From positions 4,576,001 to 4,640,000 of the forward strand of contig OY970325.1 of assembly GCA_963717145.1 (NCBI GenBank): a stretch of 64,000 bases of DNA. Direction: 5' to 3'. Shown here piece after piece: positions 49,181 through 58,156 of this stretch. The notes under the pieces were generated by a model that was given only the letters and a program-made list of their open reading frames with translations, did no database searches and was not told the origin of the DNA. A program made the translations under genes and the position numbers. Position 1 is the first letter of the stretch; each line of letters opens with the position of its first letter. Source of the DNA: an uncultured Armatimonadetes bacterium. Its GTDB lineage: Bacteria; Armatimonadota; UBA5829; DTJY01.

Positions 49181-51412
49181 ATGCCATACTCACTCCACCA
49201 GCAGCTCAAGCTGTTCAGTCGCGACCGCTTCGAGGAACTCTGCGGCCAACTCCTCAAGGCCGAGGACCCCTCGGTCGTCCCCGTCGAGGGCGCGGGCGGC
49301 GACGAGGGCGTCGACATATACAAGGGGCCGCTCGACACACCGAAGAACGAGCGCGCGGGCGAGAAGCTCCACGTCTGGCAGGTCAAGCACTTCCCCACGG
49401 GCCTAGGCGTGAGCCAGAAGAAACAGGCCAGAGAGTCCCTCAAGCGGGTGATCGCGACCCAGGACCCGGATAGCTGGACTCTCTGCGTCCCCTTCGAGTT
49501 CTCGCTCGGCGACCGCAGGTGGCTCGAAGACCTGCGGAAGGAATACCCCGGGCGCATCACTGAGCCGCTCGACGCCCCGGCGATCATGGCGCTCCTCGGC
49601 AAGCCGGAGAACCGGTCTCTTCTCGATGCGCACTTCCTCCTGCCGACCGATCAGCGGATCGCGAAGGAAGTGCTCGACCTCCTGACCGACTTCGACCTCG
49701 TGAGCGAGCGCCTGAGTGAGGAGAAGCTGCCCACGAAGACCGAGAGCGAGTTCTACAACGGCGCTGTCGCCGACTGGAAGGACATCTATGACGACCTGGA
49801 CGCCCGACGGGAGATCATCGGCGAGCTGTGGGACTTCGTGCTCGAGGCCGAGAAGAGCACCGGGGCGCTCGTGCCGTTCGCGGTGCTCACCGGGCTGAGC
49901 GGGGAGGGGAAGTCGACCGTCCTGCGTCGTCTCGCCGCCGAGTTGGTCCGCTCCGGGCGCAACGAGGTCTTCTGGCACAAGCCCGGCCGGAACGACCTGT
50001 CCGCCGAGCAGTTCTGCCATATGCCCAGAGGCGCGCTGGTCTATATCTTCATCGACAGCATCATGCTCTTTGGCCCGGACGCGATCGGGGGATTCCTCCA
50101 GCGGCTGAGGGACTTCCCGATCCGGCCGATCGTGATCTCAGCGGCGATCAACTCCCAATGGGACGGGTCAAGGCTGAATGTCGGCCAGTTCGCCGATGTC
50201 CGGGAGATCGAACTGGCGCACATGAGCCTGGCCGATGTGGAAACGCTTCTCGACAAGCTCTCCGAGGACGAAGAGCGTGCATCCGAGAACCTCGGCAAGC
50301 TGGCTAGGCTGAGCAGGGAGCAGCAGGTCAGCTGGTTCACGAAGGATGCCAAGCGGCAGCTCCTGGTTGCGCTGATCGAGGCCAAGGGCGGGCAGGGGTT
50401 CGAGCAGCACGTACTCGACGAGCTTCGGAAGCTCGACGGGGGTGAGGATGACCTCGTCCGTCAGGCCTGCATCTACGTCAGCGCCCTCCACCGCTTCGAC
50501 CTTCGCATGCCGAAGCGCCTCCTCCAGCGCCTCCTCGGGGAGGATGTCCTCCTCGAAGACCAGGTCCTCTCCAAGACCCACGGCCTCATCACCCTGATTT
50601 CCGACGAAGAGGAGTCGGTGATCACCCGCCATACTCTTGTCGCCCAGATCATCTACAAGTCCGAAGCCGGCGACAGCCCTGAGTGGTGCGAGCGGATTAT
50701 TGACGCGGGGGGGGAGGAAGATGACTTCCTGCTCTATTTCTGGTTGAGCGCAACGGTGGGTGCGAATCTCCGTCTGGCGATGCATCTGATAAGGCGTGAG
50801 AAGAAAGGCTCTTTCGGGGATGTCGGGATGGCTCCCACCTGGCCCTTATGGGATGAGCGTTGTGCCGAGCTCATGCGCAGCCGTGCATTCTACAGGAAGG
50901 CAACGCAAGAGGAGCCTGAGAATGCTAATCCCTGGTGCGAATGGGCGCATGTAGAGAACGCACTGGGGAACACCGGGGAGAAGGAAGACCCCGAGGCCTA
51001 CACCGCGAGGTGGCTGTTCATGAGGGCGACAGAGGCGGATCCGCACTACGCTTGGCTTTGGGAACAGTGGGCGGACATGGAGAAGGACGATGGAAACTGG
51101 GATGCTGCCGAGGGGTTGTACCGACGATCATTGAAGGAGACAGGCAAACCGCTATACCGCAGCCATGTGCATCACAAGTTGGGCGTCATGTTCTACTCGC
51201 TCGGTCGCATGGACGAAGCATGTGAGAACTTGGAACTGGCGGTCACCGAGATGTCTGGAGAATGGATGTCACACCACTGGCTCGCGCGTGCCTACCTGGA
51301 AAGACATCGTGTCGCGGACGCGGAGCGCCATTGCTGCATTGCGCTCAGACTCCAGCCAGACGACAGGGATACGCAGGAACTGCATGAGAAGATAAAGCGT
51401 GCCCGAGAGTAA
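49181..51412 (+). CDS. Restriction-endonuclease-like + STAND-like NTPase + TPR protein (Avs-like defence candidate)
   Basis: FEELC…GGDEGVD…QVK nuclease motif; GLSGEGKST Walker A; YIFID Walker B; C-terminal TPR/HAT repeats. Confidence 0.8.
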   Translation: MPYSLHQQLKLFSRDRFEELCGQLLKAEDPSVVPVEGAGGDEGVDIYKGPLDTPKNERAGEKLHVWQVKHFPTGLGVSQKKQARESLKRVIATQDPDSWTLCVPFEFSLGDRRWLEDLRKEYPGRITEPLDAPAIMALLGKPENRSLLDAHFLLPTDQRIAKEVLDLLTDFDLVSERLSEEKLPTKTESEFYNGAVADWKDIYDDLDARREIIGELWDFVLEAEKSTGALVPFAVLTGLSGEGKSTVLRRLAAELVRSGRNEVFWHKPGRNDLSAEQFCHMPRGALVYIFIDSIMLFGPDAIGGFLQRLRDFPIRPIVISAAINSQWDGSRLNVGQFADVREIELAHMSLADVETLLDKLSEDEERASENLGKLARLSREQQVSWFTKDAKRQLLVALIEAKGGQGFEQHVLDELRKLDGGEDDLVRQACIYVSALHRFDLRMPKRLLQRLLGEDVLLEDQVLSKTHGLITLISDEEESVITRHTLVAQIIYKSEAGDSPEWCERIIDAGGEEDDFLLYFWLSATVGANLRLAMHLIRREKKGSFGDVGMAPTWPLWDERCAELMRSRAFYRKATQEEPENANPWCEWAHVENALGNTGEKEDPEAYTARWLFMRATEADPHYAWLWEQWADMEKDDGNWDAAEGLYRRSLKETGKPLYRSHVHHKLGVMFYSLGRMDEACENLELAVTEMSGEWMSHHWLARAYLERHRVADAERHCCIALRLQPDDRDTQELHEKIKRARE

Positions 51413-51448
51413 GGGAAGCGCCGTCGGTGAGAATAGGTCGCACGTGCG

Positions 51449-51497
51449 GTTGAGACCGCGGGCGACGAAAGGCACGAAGTCCGCCTCCGCGGACTGG
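51449..51497. repeat. REP-like unit AGTCCGC-N-GCGGACT
   Basis: …ggcacgaagtccgcctccgcggactg hairpin. Confidence 0.6.
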
Positions 51498-51651
51498 GGC
51501 TGTGCCTCGGCAGACCGCCGATCTCCCTCCGAGTCAACTGCTGTTGGTGCGAGGCCTCGGAGTGTGACATCTGATTGGCTGAGTCTCCCGTCCATGCTAT
51601 AATAAGGCGGCGCTAGGCCGTCGATTCTACTTGAATGAGGAGGTCATCTTC

Positions 51652-53025
51652 ATGGCACTGGTTCGTCCCCGGCTCAATGATCACTACGACCTTCCATTCA
51701 CGCAATCGGACGTAGACTTCGCCATTCCTCTGCTGGACGAGGACATCCCTCTGTATGCTGATCCATTCCTGCTGTGGAACTCCCCCTCACAGCAGGACAA
51801 CTCCCTCCATACTACTCTGATCAGCGCCTTCAATCATTTGGGACGCATGGCTCGGAAGGGCAAGGAGGATGAGGCAGCAGCGATACTCGTTGCCCTCTCT
51901 GAGTGCCGCGAGGTCGGACTGGGGAGCGCTCGCAACAAGCAGGGCCATAGGATAGGGAAGAAGACCGCTCTGGAGATTCTGTCGCTCTTCGGCAAGATTC
52001 CACAGGTGGCAGAGCAGGGATTTGAGCATATCGAGGAGGTCCAGCTTTTCGTGGACCAGATTGCGGCGGACCGCATAAGCGACATCACCTGCAGCGTGGT
52101 CAAGTCATTCCTGATCGACTTCACGATCGACCAGTGTGTGAAGTGGGGGATACCGAGGACAGCAGTAGTCGTGACGGAACTGCTTGACACTAAGCGCATG
52201 CGTCTGACCTCGGAGACTCTTGAACTGCCTGTGAACCCGAACAGTGGAAGTCCTGTGCTCCTAGTGCCAAAGCGATGGCTGCGATACCAGCCGTGGATCA
52301 ACTACGAGGACTATTTCGATGATGCGTACTGCAAAGCTGTTGCTCAGCCAGGCGATGGCAAGGTCGATAGGATAGCCGTACTGAACTACAACCGTCAGAA
52401 CTACGGCATGGTGCAGACCTACGTGCGCGAGAAAGAGCGTACGCAGGCCGACTGCAAGAACGATCCGCTGTTCAAGGCGATACCGATCATTTCGGCGAAG
52501 CGAAAGCTGGCGGAGATACGCAGACTGCCTACCGGTAAGACCGGCGACGCGGACAAACGATATGAGGATCTCGCGTGCCAGTTGATGGCGTCGATGCTTT
52601 ACCCTCAACTGGATTTCGCCGATGAGCAGAGCAGGACGGATTCCGGCGTCTTGATTCGTGACCTGATCTTCTACAACAACCGAGCAATGGACTTCCTGCG
52701 GGACATCCGCGAGGACTATGGAAGCCGTCAGATCGTCTTCGAACTCAAGAACGTAGCGAAGATCGAGCGAGAGCACATAAACCAGATCAACCGATACATG
52801 GCGGACCAATTCGGCAAGTTTGGCGTGATTCTTACGCGGAACCCCTTGCCCAAAGCCATGTTTCAGAGTACCATAGACCTATGGTCAGGTCAGCGAAGGT
52901 GCATTATCGCGCTCACTGACATTGATGTCGAGATGATGGTGACTCTGTTTGAGAGCAAGCAGCGGTTGCCAGCGGAAGTACTCAAGAAGGTATACTTAGA
53001 GTTCACTCGTGCTTGTCCAGCATGA
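51652..53025 (+). CDS. Hypothetical protein with a C-terminal PD-(D/E)xK nuclease-like domain
   Basis: YEDLAC…RDLIFYN…IVFELKN…QINRY…FGVILTR; GAGGAGG SD; TGcTATAAT extended -10. Confidence 0.75.
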   Translation: MALVRPRLNDHYDLPFTQSDVDFAIPLLDEDIPLYADPFLLWNSPSQQDNSLHTTLISAFNHLGRMARKGKEDEAAAILVALSECREVGLGSARNKQGHRIGKKTALEILSLFGKIPQVAEQGFEHIEEVQLFVDQIAADRISDITCSVVKSFLIDFTIDQCVKWGIPRTAVVVTELLDTKRMRLTSETLELPVNPNSGSPVLLVPKRWLRYQPWINYEDYFDDAYCKAVAQPGDGKVDRIAVLNYNRQNYGMVQTYVREKERTQADCKNDPLFKAIPIISAKRKLAEIRRLPTGKTGDADKRYEDLACQLMASMLYPQLDFADEQSRTDSGVLIRDLIFYNNRAMDFLRDIREDYGSRQIVFELKNVAKIEREHINQINRYMADQFGKFGVILTRNPLPKAMFQSTIDLWSGQRRCIIALTDIDVEMMVTLFESKQRLPAEVLKKVYLEFTRACPA

Positions 53026-53046: not shown

Positions 53047-53436
53047 ATGAAGGCTGAGGATGTCGATTTCTTTGAGAAGGTGCAGGCGCAGTTGGGACAG
53101 CTACACAAAGAGATGAGTGCTCTTGCCAAGAGCAAGGCCGACAACCCCGTCAACAAGTTCAAGCTGAAGCTAATGAACCAGAAGTTGGCGGAAGCCAACA
53201 CTATCCTCGTAGGTGGCTTCGCCCCGTTCGAGGACTTCGAGACTTTTCCCGAGGAGGACTTACCATCCAACAGTGACGTCGTGATGGTGCTATCCCAGTA
53301 TCTGGAGTGTCTTGAGGGATGGAGATCGGCCAACGTAGTATACAACCCCAGCGACTACGAATGGTATTGGAAGACTGATGATCGTAGCAGCATCAAGTCA
53401 CGACAACCGTCGAGGTTCCGAGTGAACGCAAAGTGA
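53047..53436 (+). CDS. Small helical hypothetical protein, paralogue A
   Basis: AAGGAG SD; NKFKL, LPSNSDV, SQYL, WYW shared with the next gene. Confidence 0.85.
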   Translation: MKAEDVDFFEKVQAQLGQLHKEMSALAKSKADNPVNKFKLKLMNQKLAEANTILVGGFAPFEDFETFPEEDLPSNSDVVMVLSQYLECLEGWRSANVVYNPSDYEWYWKTDDRSSIKSRQPSRFRVNAK

Positions 53437-53462
53437 TGCAGAGAGGCGCAAAGCCAGGGACG

Positions 53463-53840
53463 ATGAAGAGGCAAGAAGTAGATGCGTTCGAGGCGCTCGA
53501 AGGACAGCTTGCCAGCTTGTACGACGAGATGCAGACCCTCGTAAAGAAGAGCCCGAATGACTTGATGAATAAGTTCAAGTTGCAGCTTGTAAACTCGATC
53601 CTGAAGCGGGTTAACGAGATGCTCGGTGATAAGCGCAAGCCGTTCCCCGATTTCTGCATGTTCGATCAGGACGTCTTACCTTCAAACAGCGATGTTCTCG
53701 TCATCGTCTCCCAGTATCTGAGTAGCATGGAGGAACTCAGAGTGGCCAACATCCACATGAGCGGGGGACGGTGGTACTGGACCATGACTGACGATTCCTC
53801 GACTAGGAGTGCCGCAACCCCGAGGAGGCTGCGCAAGTAG
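53463..53840 (+). CDS. Small helical hypothetical protein, paralogue B
   Basis: Aligns from MK…VD.FE with paralogue A (43 identities in the first 96 residues, no gaps). Confidence 0.85.
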   Translation: MKRQEVDAFEALEGQLASLYDEMQTLVKKSPNDLMNKFKLQLVNSILKRVNEMLGDKRKPFPDFCMFDQDVLPSNSDVLVIVSQYLSSMEELRVANIHMSGGRWYWTMTDDSSTRSAATPRRLRK

Positions 53841-54095: not shown

Positions 54096-54288
54096 TATCG
54101 AAACATCACAGGCGGCTATCCGGCGCGAAACGGTGCTTATCCCGGGCGAAGGGATACGTATCCCGGGCGAAAAGATAGCTATCCCGGGCGGCGGGATATG
54201 TATCTCGCCGGGAAGGATATGTATCTCGGCGCGGGGGATAGCGATCCCTCGCACCGGTATAGCTATCCCCGGCGGACCGATAGCGATC
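54096..54288. repeat. 21-nt-period tandem array (TATC-N11-GATA-N2), nine units
   Basis: Units start at 54096, 54117, 54138, 54159, 54180, 54201, 54222, 54243, 54264. Confidence 0.85.
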
Positions 54289-54355
54289 GGATTCGTAACG
54301 GGGGATGGGCGGGCGGATCGAGCGACCGTGCGACCCTCGGGAGGAGGAAATCATC

Positions 54356-55015
54356 GTGGCAAGAGATTACATCGTTCGGAAGGACCAGGAGTTCAATGCC
54401 TGGCTCGCGAACTTCATCACCAGTCTGAGTGCGCATTCGGCGGAATTCGGCCTTGTGCCGGAGGACCTGCTGCCCATCGAGGGCGAATCCACCGCCTTCG
54501 ATTCCGCGCTTACCTTACTGGAGCAGCGGCGAATCGCATTGAACTCGGCTTCGAAGAACAAGATGAGCAGGCGGGTCTCGACGGAGGCGGTCCTGCGCCC
54601 GCTCGTCCGCCGTATCACGGGCCATCCCGCGATGACCGACGGACTCCTGGGCCAACTGGGCCTGCCGGTTCGGAGAGTCCGCAAAGGAATCCTGCCGGTC
54701 GGACCAGAGGTCCCGGCGATACTCACCGAGGCCGCCCCGGGCCGGGTGATCATTCATTTTGGGACCGCGCCGGCGAACGAGCAGCGCAATGGAAAACCGG
54801 GATGGGCGAAGGGATGCAACATCTACCGCAGCAAGGCCGGCGAGTCTGACTTCCGGATGGTCGGCTTCGCGAGCGCATCTCCGTATGTCGATGAGGTGGT
54901 AGGAGCGGGATCGGATTACACGTACTACGTCCAGTATCGGGGAACGAAGGCCACCCAACTGGGTCAAGGCTCGCATCAGATGACCGTCGCGGCCCGTGGG
55001 TTGGAGGCGGCGTAG
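54356..55015 (+). CDS. Hypothetical protein: helical N-domain plus FN3/Ig-like C-domain
   Basis: GTG after GAGGAGG; DYIVRKDQEFNAW start; IIHFG…GKP…GCNIY…SPYVD…YTYYVQY beta pattern. Confidence 0.8.
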   Translation: MARDYIVRKDQEFNAWLANFITSLSAHSAEFGLVPEDLLPIEGESTAFDSALTLLEQRRIALNSASKNKMSRRVSTEAVLRPLVRRITGHPAMTDGLLGQLGLPVRRVRKGILPVGPEVPAILTEAAPGRVIIHFGTAPANEQRNGKPGWAKGCNIYRSKAGESDFRMVGFASASPYVDEVVGAGSDYTYYVQYRGTKATQLGQGSHQMTVAARGLEAA

Positions 55016-55020
55016 GGGGA

Positions 55021-55096
55021 ATGGTTGATGGGGGATGGTTCATGGTTGATGCCGGATCATTCCCCGTTTGCCATCGACCATCAGCCATCAACCATT
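55021..55096. repeat. Heptamer (ATGGTTG) fold-back repeat between convergent genes
   Basis: atggttgatggggga-tggttcatggttgatg … catcgaccatcagccatcaaccat. Confidence 0.8.
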
Positions 55097-55098
55097 CC

Positions 55099-55653
55099 CT
55101 ACATGTATTTCTCGCCGAGCCGGTCGAGGAGCGCGTGATATCGCTCGTGGACTCCCGGCCCGATGCGCTCCTGCTCGACCCGCTCGAATTCAGTCGTCAA
55201 CCTCGCATGCTCGTCCTCGCACAGATGCTGCTCGGCCATGCAGAAGAGGATGTTGTTCTCCTTCTCGATGTGCTCGGTGAGAAGCTGAACGTATCCATGG
55301 GCCGCCGATGCGAACGCCTTCCGCGCATCCGGATCGCCCTCACGGATGCCGGGCAGCGCATCGGCCATCCCTCGGACGAACTCCCGCCCACATTTGTGCT
55401 CGGTCAGCATCACGCCGATCGGCCCGCCCTCCCTCGGGATTCCGACCTTCTCGAGAGCGGGGAACAGCAGGTCCTCTTCCTTCCCATGGTGGCATCGGTC
55501 GGCAAATGTCTTGATGAAGTCCACCAGGCCGTCCAGATCGTCGGCCTCCACCGTGCGTCCGGCCTCGAGGTCGTCGGCCAGGCGGTCGAGGACGGCGATC
55601 GCGACCTTGATCCCCTCGTGTTCGTCTCGCAGTTCCTGGGTTGCGTATGTCAT
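55099..55653 (-). CDS. Hemerythrin (HHE) domain protein
   Basis: DEHEGI, FADRCHHGKEEDLLFP, MLTEH, HIEKENNILF. Confidence 0.93.
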   Translation of the reverse strand: MTYATQELRDEHEGIKVAIAVLDRLADDLEAGRTVEADDLDGLVDFIKTFADRCHHGKEEDLLFPALEKVGIPREGGPIGVMLTEHKCGREFVRGMADALPGIREGDPDARKAFASAAHGYVQLLTEHIEKENNILFCMAEQHLCEDEHARLTTEFERVEQERIGPGVHERYHALLDRLGEKYM

Positions 55654-56243: not shown

Positions 56244-58156
56244 GTGACATGGTGCATCAGCATTTTCCTCGGATTCGTGCTCTTCGTCCTCGGCCTGTCG
56301 TTCTACCTCGGCAACAGAGACCGACGACCTCCAGCGGCTACTACGCCGCCGGCGGGCAGATCCACTGGGGCGTCAACGGCATCGCCTTCGCCGGCGACTA
56401 CCTTTCGGCCGCCTCGTTCCTGGGCATCTGCGGCATGATCGCCACCGTCGGCTACGACGGCTTCCTCTACTCCATCGGCTACCTGGCCGGCTGGATCGTC
56501 GCGCTCTTCGTCGTGGCCGAGCCGATGAAGCGGCTGGGCAAGTACACCTTCACCGACGCCGTGGACTCCAAGTTCAACTCGCGCGGCATCAAGCTGGCGG
56601 CCGCGATCAGCACGCTGGTCGTCTCCGTCTGCTACCTGATCCCGCAGATGGTCGGCGCCGGCGTGCTGGTGGAGCCGCTGCTGGGCCTGGCGCACCACTG
56701 GGGCGTGATCATGGTCGGCGCGATCGTCATCACCATCGTGGCCACGGCCGGCATGGCCTCCACGACCTACGTGCAGTTCCTCAAGGGCGCGCTGCTGATC
56801 GTCTTCTCGACGGTGCTGGTGATCGCGGTCTGCGTCCGCGGCTTCAACACCCAGCCCGACCAGGGCGGCAAGGTGCCGTTCCACGAGTACAAGACGCTGG
56901 CCGCGCAGAAGGTCGACGGACAGCTCGCGGTGACCGAGCCGGGCTGGCAGGTCGTCGAGGTGCAGGAAGTCAAGGCCGCCAAGGCGACGCTTCGCTCAAG
57001 CTGGCGAAGGACGGCAAGGAGACCTGGTGGCTGGTCGACGACAAGGACGGCGTGGTATCGCTGGAGGAGACGCAGTCCGTCGTGATCACCAAGGACGGCC
57101 GCAAGCTCATCAACGGCGCGCCGGCCTCGAAGGAGAACGCCCTGCGCCAGGTCGGCAACATCGAGCAGCTGCGCGGGCAAGAGGTAGCGCCGAAGGGCAG
57201 CGTCTCGCCGTTCGAGTTCCTCGCCGCCCTGTCCGACAAGGACACGGTCGTGCGCCGCTGGAAGGACGCGAAGTTCGCCGACAAGGACGGCGCCAAGGTG
57301 ACCGTCTACTTCCCGTGCGCACACCGAGGGCAACCAGCTGATGCGCCCGGGCCTGAAGTTCAAGGTGCAGGGCACGCCGCTGGAGAAGCTCGACTTCGTC
57401 TCGCTGATGCTGGCGCTCTTCCTCGGCACGGCCGCCCTGCCGCACATCCTGATCCGCTACTACACCGTGCCCAACCCGGCCAGCCGCGCGCAAGTCCACC
57501 ATCGTGGCCATCGCCGCCATCGGGTTCTTCTACATCCTGACGCTGTTCATGGGCCTGGGCGCGATGATCAACGGCGTGATGAACCCGGCCGACAGCAACA
57601 TGGCCGCGCCGCTGCTGGCCCGTTCCTTCGGCAACTTCCTGTTCGCCGTCATCTCGGCCATCGCGTTCGCCACCGTGCTGGGCACGGTCAGCGGCCTGAT
57701 CGTGGCCGCCTCCGGCGCGGTGGCCCACGACTTCATGCGACCGCTTCCTGAACCGTCAGATGGACGACCACCAGAAGATCCGAGCCGGCAAGATCTCGGC
57801 CTTCGTCGTCGGCGCCATCGCCATCGTCCTGGGCATCCTCTTCAAGGGCATGAACGTGACGTTCCTGGTCGGCCTGGCCTTCGCGGTGGCGGCGTCGGCC
57901 AACCTGCCCGCCGATCCTGATGCTGCTGTTCTGGAAGAGGACGACCGCCAAGGGCATCACGGCGTCCATCTTCGTGGGCATCGTCTCGTCGCTGGCGCTG
58001 ATCGCCTTCTCGCCGGACCTGTACAAGCTGTACGGCCTGGACCCGACCACGGCGCCCATCCCGTTCACCAACCCGGGCATCATCTCGATCCCGCTGAGCT
58101 TCCTCACGCTGATCGTGGTGTCGCTGGTCACGAAGCGGGTCGAGGCCGCGGCTTAG
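56244..58156 (+). pseudogene. actP: ActP-like sodium:solute (cation/acetate) symporter broken by about six frameshifts (decay or assembly error)
   Basis: GDYLSAASFLG, PQMVGAG, GTAALPHILIRYYTVP, AIAFATVLGTVSGL, AASANLP, NPGIISIP motifs in shifting frames. Confidence 0.8.

Follow-up and report, generated by a model that had tools for sequence, protein, structure and literature searches.

The window analysed here, a stretch of 64,000 nucleotides from an uncultured Armatimonadetes bacterium, contains a tandem array (54096..54288, no strand assigned) upstream of a forward-strand gene (54356..55015) that starts with GTG and encodes a 219-aa protein, one of 25 paralogs in the genome. The array repeats with an exact 21-nt period in nine steps, each period consisting of the dyad GATA-N2-TATC and a degenerate GC-rich 11-mer, and its best-conserved stretch spans 54117-54288. 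When the sequence is printed in register, ATC anchors are spaced exactly 21 nt over nine intervals from 54096 to 54288, which bears out the first-pass annotation, and the seven well-formed dyad junctions within 54153..54288 (no strand; starts at 54153, 54174, 54195, 54216, 54237, 54258 and 54279) all read exactly as given there. These junctions, two helical turns apart, are putative binding sites. TRF assigns the array a period of 21, 7.2 copies and a score of 90. Three consecutive GATA-N2-TATC sites at spacing 21, with at most one mismatch each, occur only here in the 5.37-Mb genome, in which no such triplets were found at spacings of 19, 20, 22 or 23. The dyad symmetry of the unit reaches 0.72 (p ~0.003 against 300 column shuffles). 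The 11-mers do vary, as had been described, but they are degenerate copies of one another and not independent spacers, since their mutual identity is 49%, a value that none of 2000 shuffles reached (35% after shuffling).

The gap between array and start codon (54289..54355, forward strand) contains the Shine-Dalgarno sequence GGAGGAGG at 54340-54347. From the end of the array it is 68 nt to the GTG at 54356 and about 52 nt to the Shine-Dalgarno sequence, so that the distance of about 70 nt previously assigned to the latter applies to the start codon. Between array and gene at this locus, neither a recognisable sigma-70 promoter nor a forward-strand terminator was found. Directly 3' of the stop codon, an inverted heptamer-repeat hairpin (55017..55099, no strand assigned) belongs to a genome-wide repeat class and is not specific to the cassette. 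The genome also holds many tandem REP-like palindromes with 38-47-nt periods and many runs of 7- and 8-nt repeats, and several repeats of these kinds sit between array and gene in paralogous cassettes.

Structure prediction confirmed the earlier guess of a helical and FN3-like protein. The AlphaFold2 model (pLDDT 90) places a short helix, a helix of ~54 residues and a further short helix before a fibronectin type III (FN3) sandwich. The predicted N-terminal helical domain (54356..54655, forward strand; helices 10-26, 35-89 and 95-100), in which K69 and R81 are kept in at least 90% of 50 relatives, gave no clear match in fold searches (best Z 6.5; Foldseek E 2.6 or worse). The C-terminal FN3 fold covers residues ~112-215 (54689..55000, forward strand; Z 11.5, rmsd 1.9, 91 aligned); its structural matches are receptors, adhesion and muscle proteins, and matches among viral structures are confined to this part. 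The FN3 assignment is structural only: no Pfam family was found for the protein, and Pfam fn3 itself gave no score. Searches of 83 family members against NCBIfam and Pfam returned only isolated weak unrelated matches, none of them consistent, and a PDB sequence search returned only two weak coiled-coil matches. Hydropathy indicates no signal peptide or membrane helix, and no known DNA-binding fold appears among the structural matches.

The C-terminal tail of the protein (55001..55012, forward strand) ends in LEAA, similar to the tmRNA tag of this genome, which ends in LAA, and may be a protease degron. An AA end is present in 50 of 71 full-length members from this phylum versus 26 of 1910 long ORFs, which suggests a ClpXP-type degron; in members of the metagenome clade it occurs in 3 of 74, so it is not universal.

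Several other features of the window surround the cassette. A candidate defence pair (49181-53025) comprises a 743-aa protein with a restriction-endonuclease-like N-terminus, an nSTAND NTPase 5 region and TPR, and a 464-aa protein with a weak PD-(D/E)XK match; a related TPR protein apparently lies beside paralog locus L151. Two overlapping ORFs of 129 and 135 aa (53047-53436 and 53433-53840), clear tandem paralogs with no Pfam match above the cut-off, close a defence-like gene run. On the other side, a solute-symporter-like gene (56249-58156) is split over several frames, which suggests frameshifts or sequencing errors in the assembly.

Linkage of the arrays to a gene family

Arrays were scored over periods of 21-24, 41-44, 63 and 64 in the 900 nt upstream of each gene, and a score of at least 20 was taken as a pass. 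Upstream arrays of the 21-nt class were found at 24 of the 25 paralogs in this genome, the 25th having an 85-nt array, at 30 of 50 loci in other genomes (fragments included) and at 39 of 54 metagenome loci, the latter being the non-duplicate loci with at least 400 nt upstream within a sample of 80 of the 252 confirmed loci. Downstream arrays are confined to 3 of 25 paralogs, 2 of 50 loci in other genomes and 1 of 62 metagenome loci, and only 11 of 400 control genes pass the score. Kin loci are not independent in these counts, although the contrast with the controls far exceeds that caveat. The first-pass annotation had suggested that the DNA upstream of homologues be examined for periodicity, and periodic arrays are indeed present there; its link between array and adjacent gene holds. 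The homologues carry arrays, whereas its other concern, that similar arrays might occur independently of the gene, stands in part, there being 12 gene-less ones in this genome. Most arrays comprise 5 to 12 units, and the distance from their end to the start is 49 to 300 nt (10th-90th percentile). With high confidence, the array can be called a non-coding element that is linked to this gene family. Array and gene together form a real, widespread and apparently undescribed stand-alone cassette, no description of which was found in the literature searched.

The family comprises 3820 clusters at 50% identity and occurs in 21 of 201 genomes of the phylum. Named members come from Armatimonadota, Acidobacteria and Phycisphaerae, and the nearest Atlas clusters, which serve as a lead only, are mostly from Spirochaetota, Bacteroidota and Planctomycetota. 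The 25 paralogs of this genome, mostly below 60% identical and of native codon usage, are old. Two family members share one short locus at L074, L113 and L129, and thus tandem cassettes exist.

A conflict-type neighbour (restriction, NTPase, TIR or similar) accompanies 12 of the 25 paralogs versus 3 of 20 random loci (p 0.027), and with toxin-antitoxin pairs included the counts are 14 of 25 versus 6 of 20 (p 0.13), the neighbour classes being assigned by the analyst and 64 hand-picked near neighbours being set against 143 of 154 control ORFs at different cut-offs. Defence-type neighbours are thus only moderately enriched in this genome; in other genomes the neighbours are mostly ordinary, and such an enrichment is not evident. 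The array-side neighbours have foreign codon usage (p 0.0005), and the downstream neighbours, like the paralogs, are native. The homologues L114 and L116 adjoin a PD-(D/E)XK_3 gene and a 23S rRNA intervening-sequence protein gene, small stand-alone cassette-like genes, which suggests common insertion hot spots.

Geometry, sequence turnover and coding status of the arrays

The period is exactly 21, 42, 63 or 84 in 79 of 97 arrays and 22-24, 41, 43, 44, 64, 83 or 85 in fifteen; the remaining three, with periods of 14 and 59, are other repeats. Dual periods of 21+21 or 21+22 also occur. The sequence of the arrays, by contrast with this geometry, is not conserved. Among 1485 pairs, many shared 8-mers were found only in one paralog pair that is 94% identical, and below 80% protein identity the arrays of different paralogs have almost no 8-mers in common. 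At L130, a probable ortholog with 70% identity and the same upstream neighbour nevertheless carries a different dyad. Within one protein clade, 41 arrays can be aligned to a consensus dyad TCCRCTCC-N2-GGAGYGGA followed by three bases, with an alignment score of 135 versus ~70 and a mirror correlation of 0.93 (maximum 0.81 in 1000 shuffles). Array profiles also become more alike as protein identity increases (similarity 0.29 to 0.63; null 0.27). In a quick tree, five paralogs whose periods are 22, 43 or 44 nt group as one protein clade (SH-aLRT 98), and a sixth case, of 43-nt period, lies outside it. Such sharing of motif and period at the clade level is equally expected from plain co-descent. 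Only 22 of 49 arrays are significantly dyad-symmetric, and copies of the dyad inside the coding sequence were not found beyond a few 10-mers. That period and symmetry are kept despite the turnover of sequence points to a reader whose geometry is fixed and which changes from array to array.

The length of the helix as a ruler for the period was rejected, the helical domain being essentially free of indels across period classes. The 23-nt arrays of L005 and L007 were set aside as support for a period-shifted clade, both of them following CRP-family genes. Each of these two loci has three 18-bp palindromes at 23-nt spacing, less than 100 nt upstream of the homologue and directly 3' of the CRP-family gene, which we take to resemble CRP-type sites; they are probably sites of the adjacent regulator and would mark a regulator-controlled branch of the family.

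The first-pass annotation had offered three readings of the array, namely a heptad peptide linked to the gene, a processed small-RNA array and phased protein-binding sites. A heptad-repeat peptide translated from the array, either as a leader or as an N-terminal extension, would agree with the two of three frames that are open on each strand at this locus, as that annotation had observed, and with several database homologues called with heptad N-terminal extensions, one of them much like the peptide of the locus array. However, non-triplet periods (e.g., 22, 41, 43 and 44 nt) occur in 14 of 97 arrays, and in 13 of 55 every sense frame contains stops. For the metagenome clade, stop counts over 2317 codons are similar in the sense frame that is most open (24) and in its mirror antisense frame (28). 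At the locus itself, moreover, Ile is fixed as ATC at one heptad position and as the rare ATA (~10% of Ile codons) at the other, codons that the DNA dyad demands, and a strong Shine-Dalgarno sequence stands at 54340. The peptide reading is therefore largely refuted and extremely improbable; as a general role of the arrays a peptide appears ruled out by these sequence comparisons, and the heptad extensions of database homologues are best read as gene calls that probably run into the array. Transcription of the array into a series of small hairpin RNAs, similar to guides or antitoxins and bound by the protein, is less easily set aside, and we nevertheless regard it as quite improbable. Folding with z < -2 is seen in 25 of 55 arrays, but the antisense strand folds as well (24 of 55), with no strand bias overall (sense favoured in 26 of 55), and there is no G-U excess (G-T versus A-C mismatches of 59 vs 70, 271 vs 303 and 302 vs 332). 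An excess of compensated changes in one count (72 vs 31 expected) was rejected when units of the same array served as control. Compared with pairs of different units from one array, single units gain at most 0.05 in complementarity, which indicates that the symmetry is a property of the array consensus and not of local hairpins. The variable segments are degenerate copies of one another. At 18 of 39 metagenome-clade loci, a sigma-70-like promoter separates the array from the gene (antisense in 2, upstream in 1), a pattern chosen post hoc after a sigma-70 matrix test that favoured sense over antisense (p 0.002, n 70), and there the array is outside the transcript of the gene. Rfam has no family for the arrays and gave one chance match far below threshold, and neither a Nop nor a nuclease fold was found in the protein. 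An RNA role of the arrays is therefore unlikely and action as DNA probable, the small-RNA reading being disfavoured in general and keeping some room at the locus described here, where no promoter intervenes and the array may be in the transcript.

The reader of the array

Phased protein-binding sites are the one of the three readings that fits the evidence, and two questions follow, namely whether the array is read at all and, if so, by which protein. If array and gene were a selfish REP-like mobile unit, the period would reflect copying and no reader would be needed. The 25 scattered copies and the 12 solo arrays, which lie in intergenic gaps with no gene remnant, would suit such a unit, as would the insertion sites, which are intergenic hot spots in common with REP-like and heptamer repeats, and the similarity of five solo arrays to gene-linked ones (69-92%), which extends little or not at all into the flanks; the solo arrays could represent relics or satellite sites, or could signal mobility. 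However, the protein has no catalytic fold and no transposase partner, the paralogs are old and of native codon usage, and the array sequence is not conserved, unlike the ends of mobile elements. The family has no matches in plasmid and phage collections, and in viral contigs a first profile gave 0 matches and a second only two partial matches of 30 residues. Mobility of this kind is accordingly given a low probability. A scan of viral sequences for three copies of the locus unit returned one unrelated AT-rich perfect repeat only. One solo array (G000:C1:546374-546997) joins units of two gene-linked arrays, of the 22-nt and the 43-nt type, and thus these types are related and combinable.

Alternatively, the array could be a DNA regulatory element upstream of the promoter that is read by another protein, be it a transcription factor encoded nearby or at a distance or a nucleoid protein tolerant of sequence, in which case the FN3 protein would be only the regulated output. 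A spacing of 21 bp is typical for LytTR and AraC sites. The promoters between array and gene in the metagenome clade agree with this possibility, as do the lack of a known DNA-binding fold in the FN3 protein and the CRP-family genes that precede L005 and L007 and the AraC gene that precedes L052, so that some arrays may belong to such regulators. At loci with a visible promoter, the array does not overlap the -35 box and stops short of it by 11 to 354 nt. On the other hand, only 3 of 85 scanned upstream ORFs are regulators (87 were crudely called, and 45 had no Pfam match, some of them probably miscalled), no transcription-factor family was found among 64 scanned neighbours of the paralogs, and this genome, with about 25 different array sequences, has 0 LytTR genes and a single, distant AraC gene. 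A sequence-tolerant reader, for its part, would leave the clade-specific dyad consensus unexplained. Reading by another protein is thus possible and, in our estimate, rather unlikely. The adjacent gene appears to be the sole constant partner of the arrays, although against its product as the reader stand the lack of a known DNA-binding fold, the net-basic composition (more basic than acidic residues) of only 8 of the 25 paralogs, the limited number of significant dyads, the changed dyad of L130 and the gene-less arrays.

The explanation that we prefer, at evenly balanced probability, is that the array would present dyad sites along one face of double-stranded DNA, to which the adjacent protein would bind cooperatively, with a separate sequence for each paralog. 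The array would act as double-stranded DNA, as a row of two-fold symmetric sites that, because they repeat every two helical turns, would all face the same side of the helix. Its most likely reader would be the product of the adjacent gene, presumably a dimer joined by the long helix, and such dimers would line up cooperatively along the array. The long helix of the putative dimer measures ~8 nm as compared with 7 nm for 21 bp, which is arithmetic and not evidence. Each paralog would co-diverge with its own dyad sequence, and the 25 pairs in this genome would consequently be largely orthogonal. We infer that the array may serve as a docking and sink site that controls the expression of its own gene and sets the free level of a probably unstable, non-enzymatic protein, in which the FN3 domain would be a likely interaction module; a role in conflict or stress seems probable.

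Relation to known systems and significance

The cassette would be most like a centromere or operator array with its cognate binder. In F sopC/SopB, R1 parC/ParR and replication iterons, tandem and helically phased sites, often dyads, lie by the gene of the cognate binder, each system with its own sequence. Phased tandem sites beside a gene are likewise found here. In contrast to these systems, however, the cassettes are chromosomal, with up to 25 different pairs per genome, have no conserved ATPase or Rep partner and no constant neighbour, are absent from plasmid and phage collections, and encode proteins with no ParB, ParR, Rep, ribbon-helix-helix or winged-helix match. LytTR, AraC and CRP operators also have repeats at 21-23-bp spacing, typically with two or three sites. 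Their two-turn phasing upstream of a promoter is a further likeness and may explain L005, L007 and L052, whereas the arrays described here have 5-12 sites and lie in a genome with 0 LytTR genes and 1 AraC gene, none of which is among the scanned neighbours of the paralogs.

Other systems with short repeats differ more clearly. In type III toxin-antitoxin systems, near-identical RNA repeats and a terminator precede an RNase toxin, whereas here there is no forward-strand terminator, no Rfam family and, in place of a toxin family, an FN3 fold. REP/RAYT systems combine one palindrome sequence in many genomic copies with an HUH transposase; the locus unit is arrayed at one genome site only, and the protein belongs to no transposase family. 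CRISPR arrays have a constant repeat and unrelated spacers of ~25-45 nt, as opposed to interrelated 11-nt parts at period 21, and no Cas family was found among 8 window proteins or the 64 scanned neighbours of the paralogs, so that the verdict of the first-pass annotation that this is not CRISPR is upheld. TIGR-Tas arrays (PMC12045711) have 36-nt units in which two spacers are flanked by conserved box C and D motifs, and they are processed into small RNAs. A short-period array by a small and sometimes nuclease-free gene is common to both, and the 21+21 and 21+22 periods recall dual-repeat units. However, the units here are of the 21-nt class and not 36 nt, no motif is common across clades, the variable parts are degenerate copies, and no RNA signature is seen. 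A Nop domain had no Pfam match in 83 members, whose C-terminal domain is FN3 and whose N-terminal domain has no clear match, an absence from match lists and not an exclusion. By defining features the cassette does not belong with CRISPR, type III toxin-antitoxin systems or REP/RAYT, nor, by its array, with TIGR systems.

Two conflict-related systems offer partial likenesses. BstA is a prophage-borne abortive-infection protein with a KilA-N-like domain, and its aba, 63 bp long, is a lone element that contains two short direct repeats (bioRxiv 10.1101/2020.07.13.199331). This short element at the 5' end of the gene itself acts as DNA, with no RNA or peptide role, and is coupled to the neighbouring protein, which resembles the probable role of the array here; the present cassettes differ in having a phased dyad array of 5-12 units and a helical-FN3 protein with no KilA-N domain. 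The HU-HIG clade of Bacteroidetes (PMC5499826) has an HU N-terminal domain and, in some members, a C-terminal Ig-fold. Its small proteins, lineage-specific expansions, lack of conserved operon partners and proposed role in conflict resemble the family described here, in which, however, the N-terminal domain is a long helical hairpin instead of HU, and the accessible text of PMC5499826 mentions no upstream arrays.

A broader proposal, which we consider unlikely though worth stating, is that these proteins would form a large family of DNA readers in which a long dimerising helix is combined with an Ig-type FN3 fold and which, tens per genome, would each have a private and quickly rewritten address array. 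The array would hold an unstable effector on the chromosome, which, set free when that DNA is lost or competed for, as in phage attack or degradation, would serve to sense genome integrity.

For a family so large, no family model or description appears to be available among the resources searched. The arrays account for a class of spurious heptad-repeat ORFs in databases. Even with another reader, an element that is defined by period and symmetry and not by sequence escapes current annotation. If the protein does read its array, it would belong to a new class of DNA-binding proteins in bacteria, in which many pairs of protein and site are orthogonal by nature, and the cassettes would offer a clean case of specificity rewritten while geometry is kept, as well as a possible source of regulatory parts.
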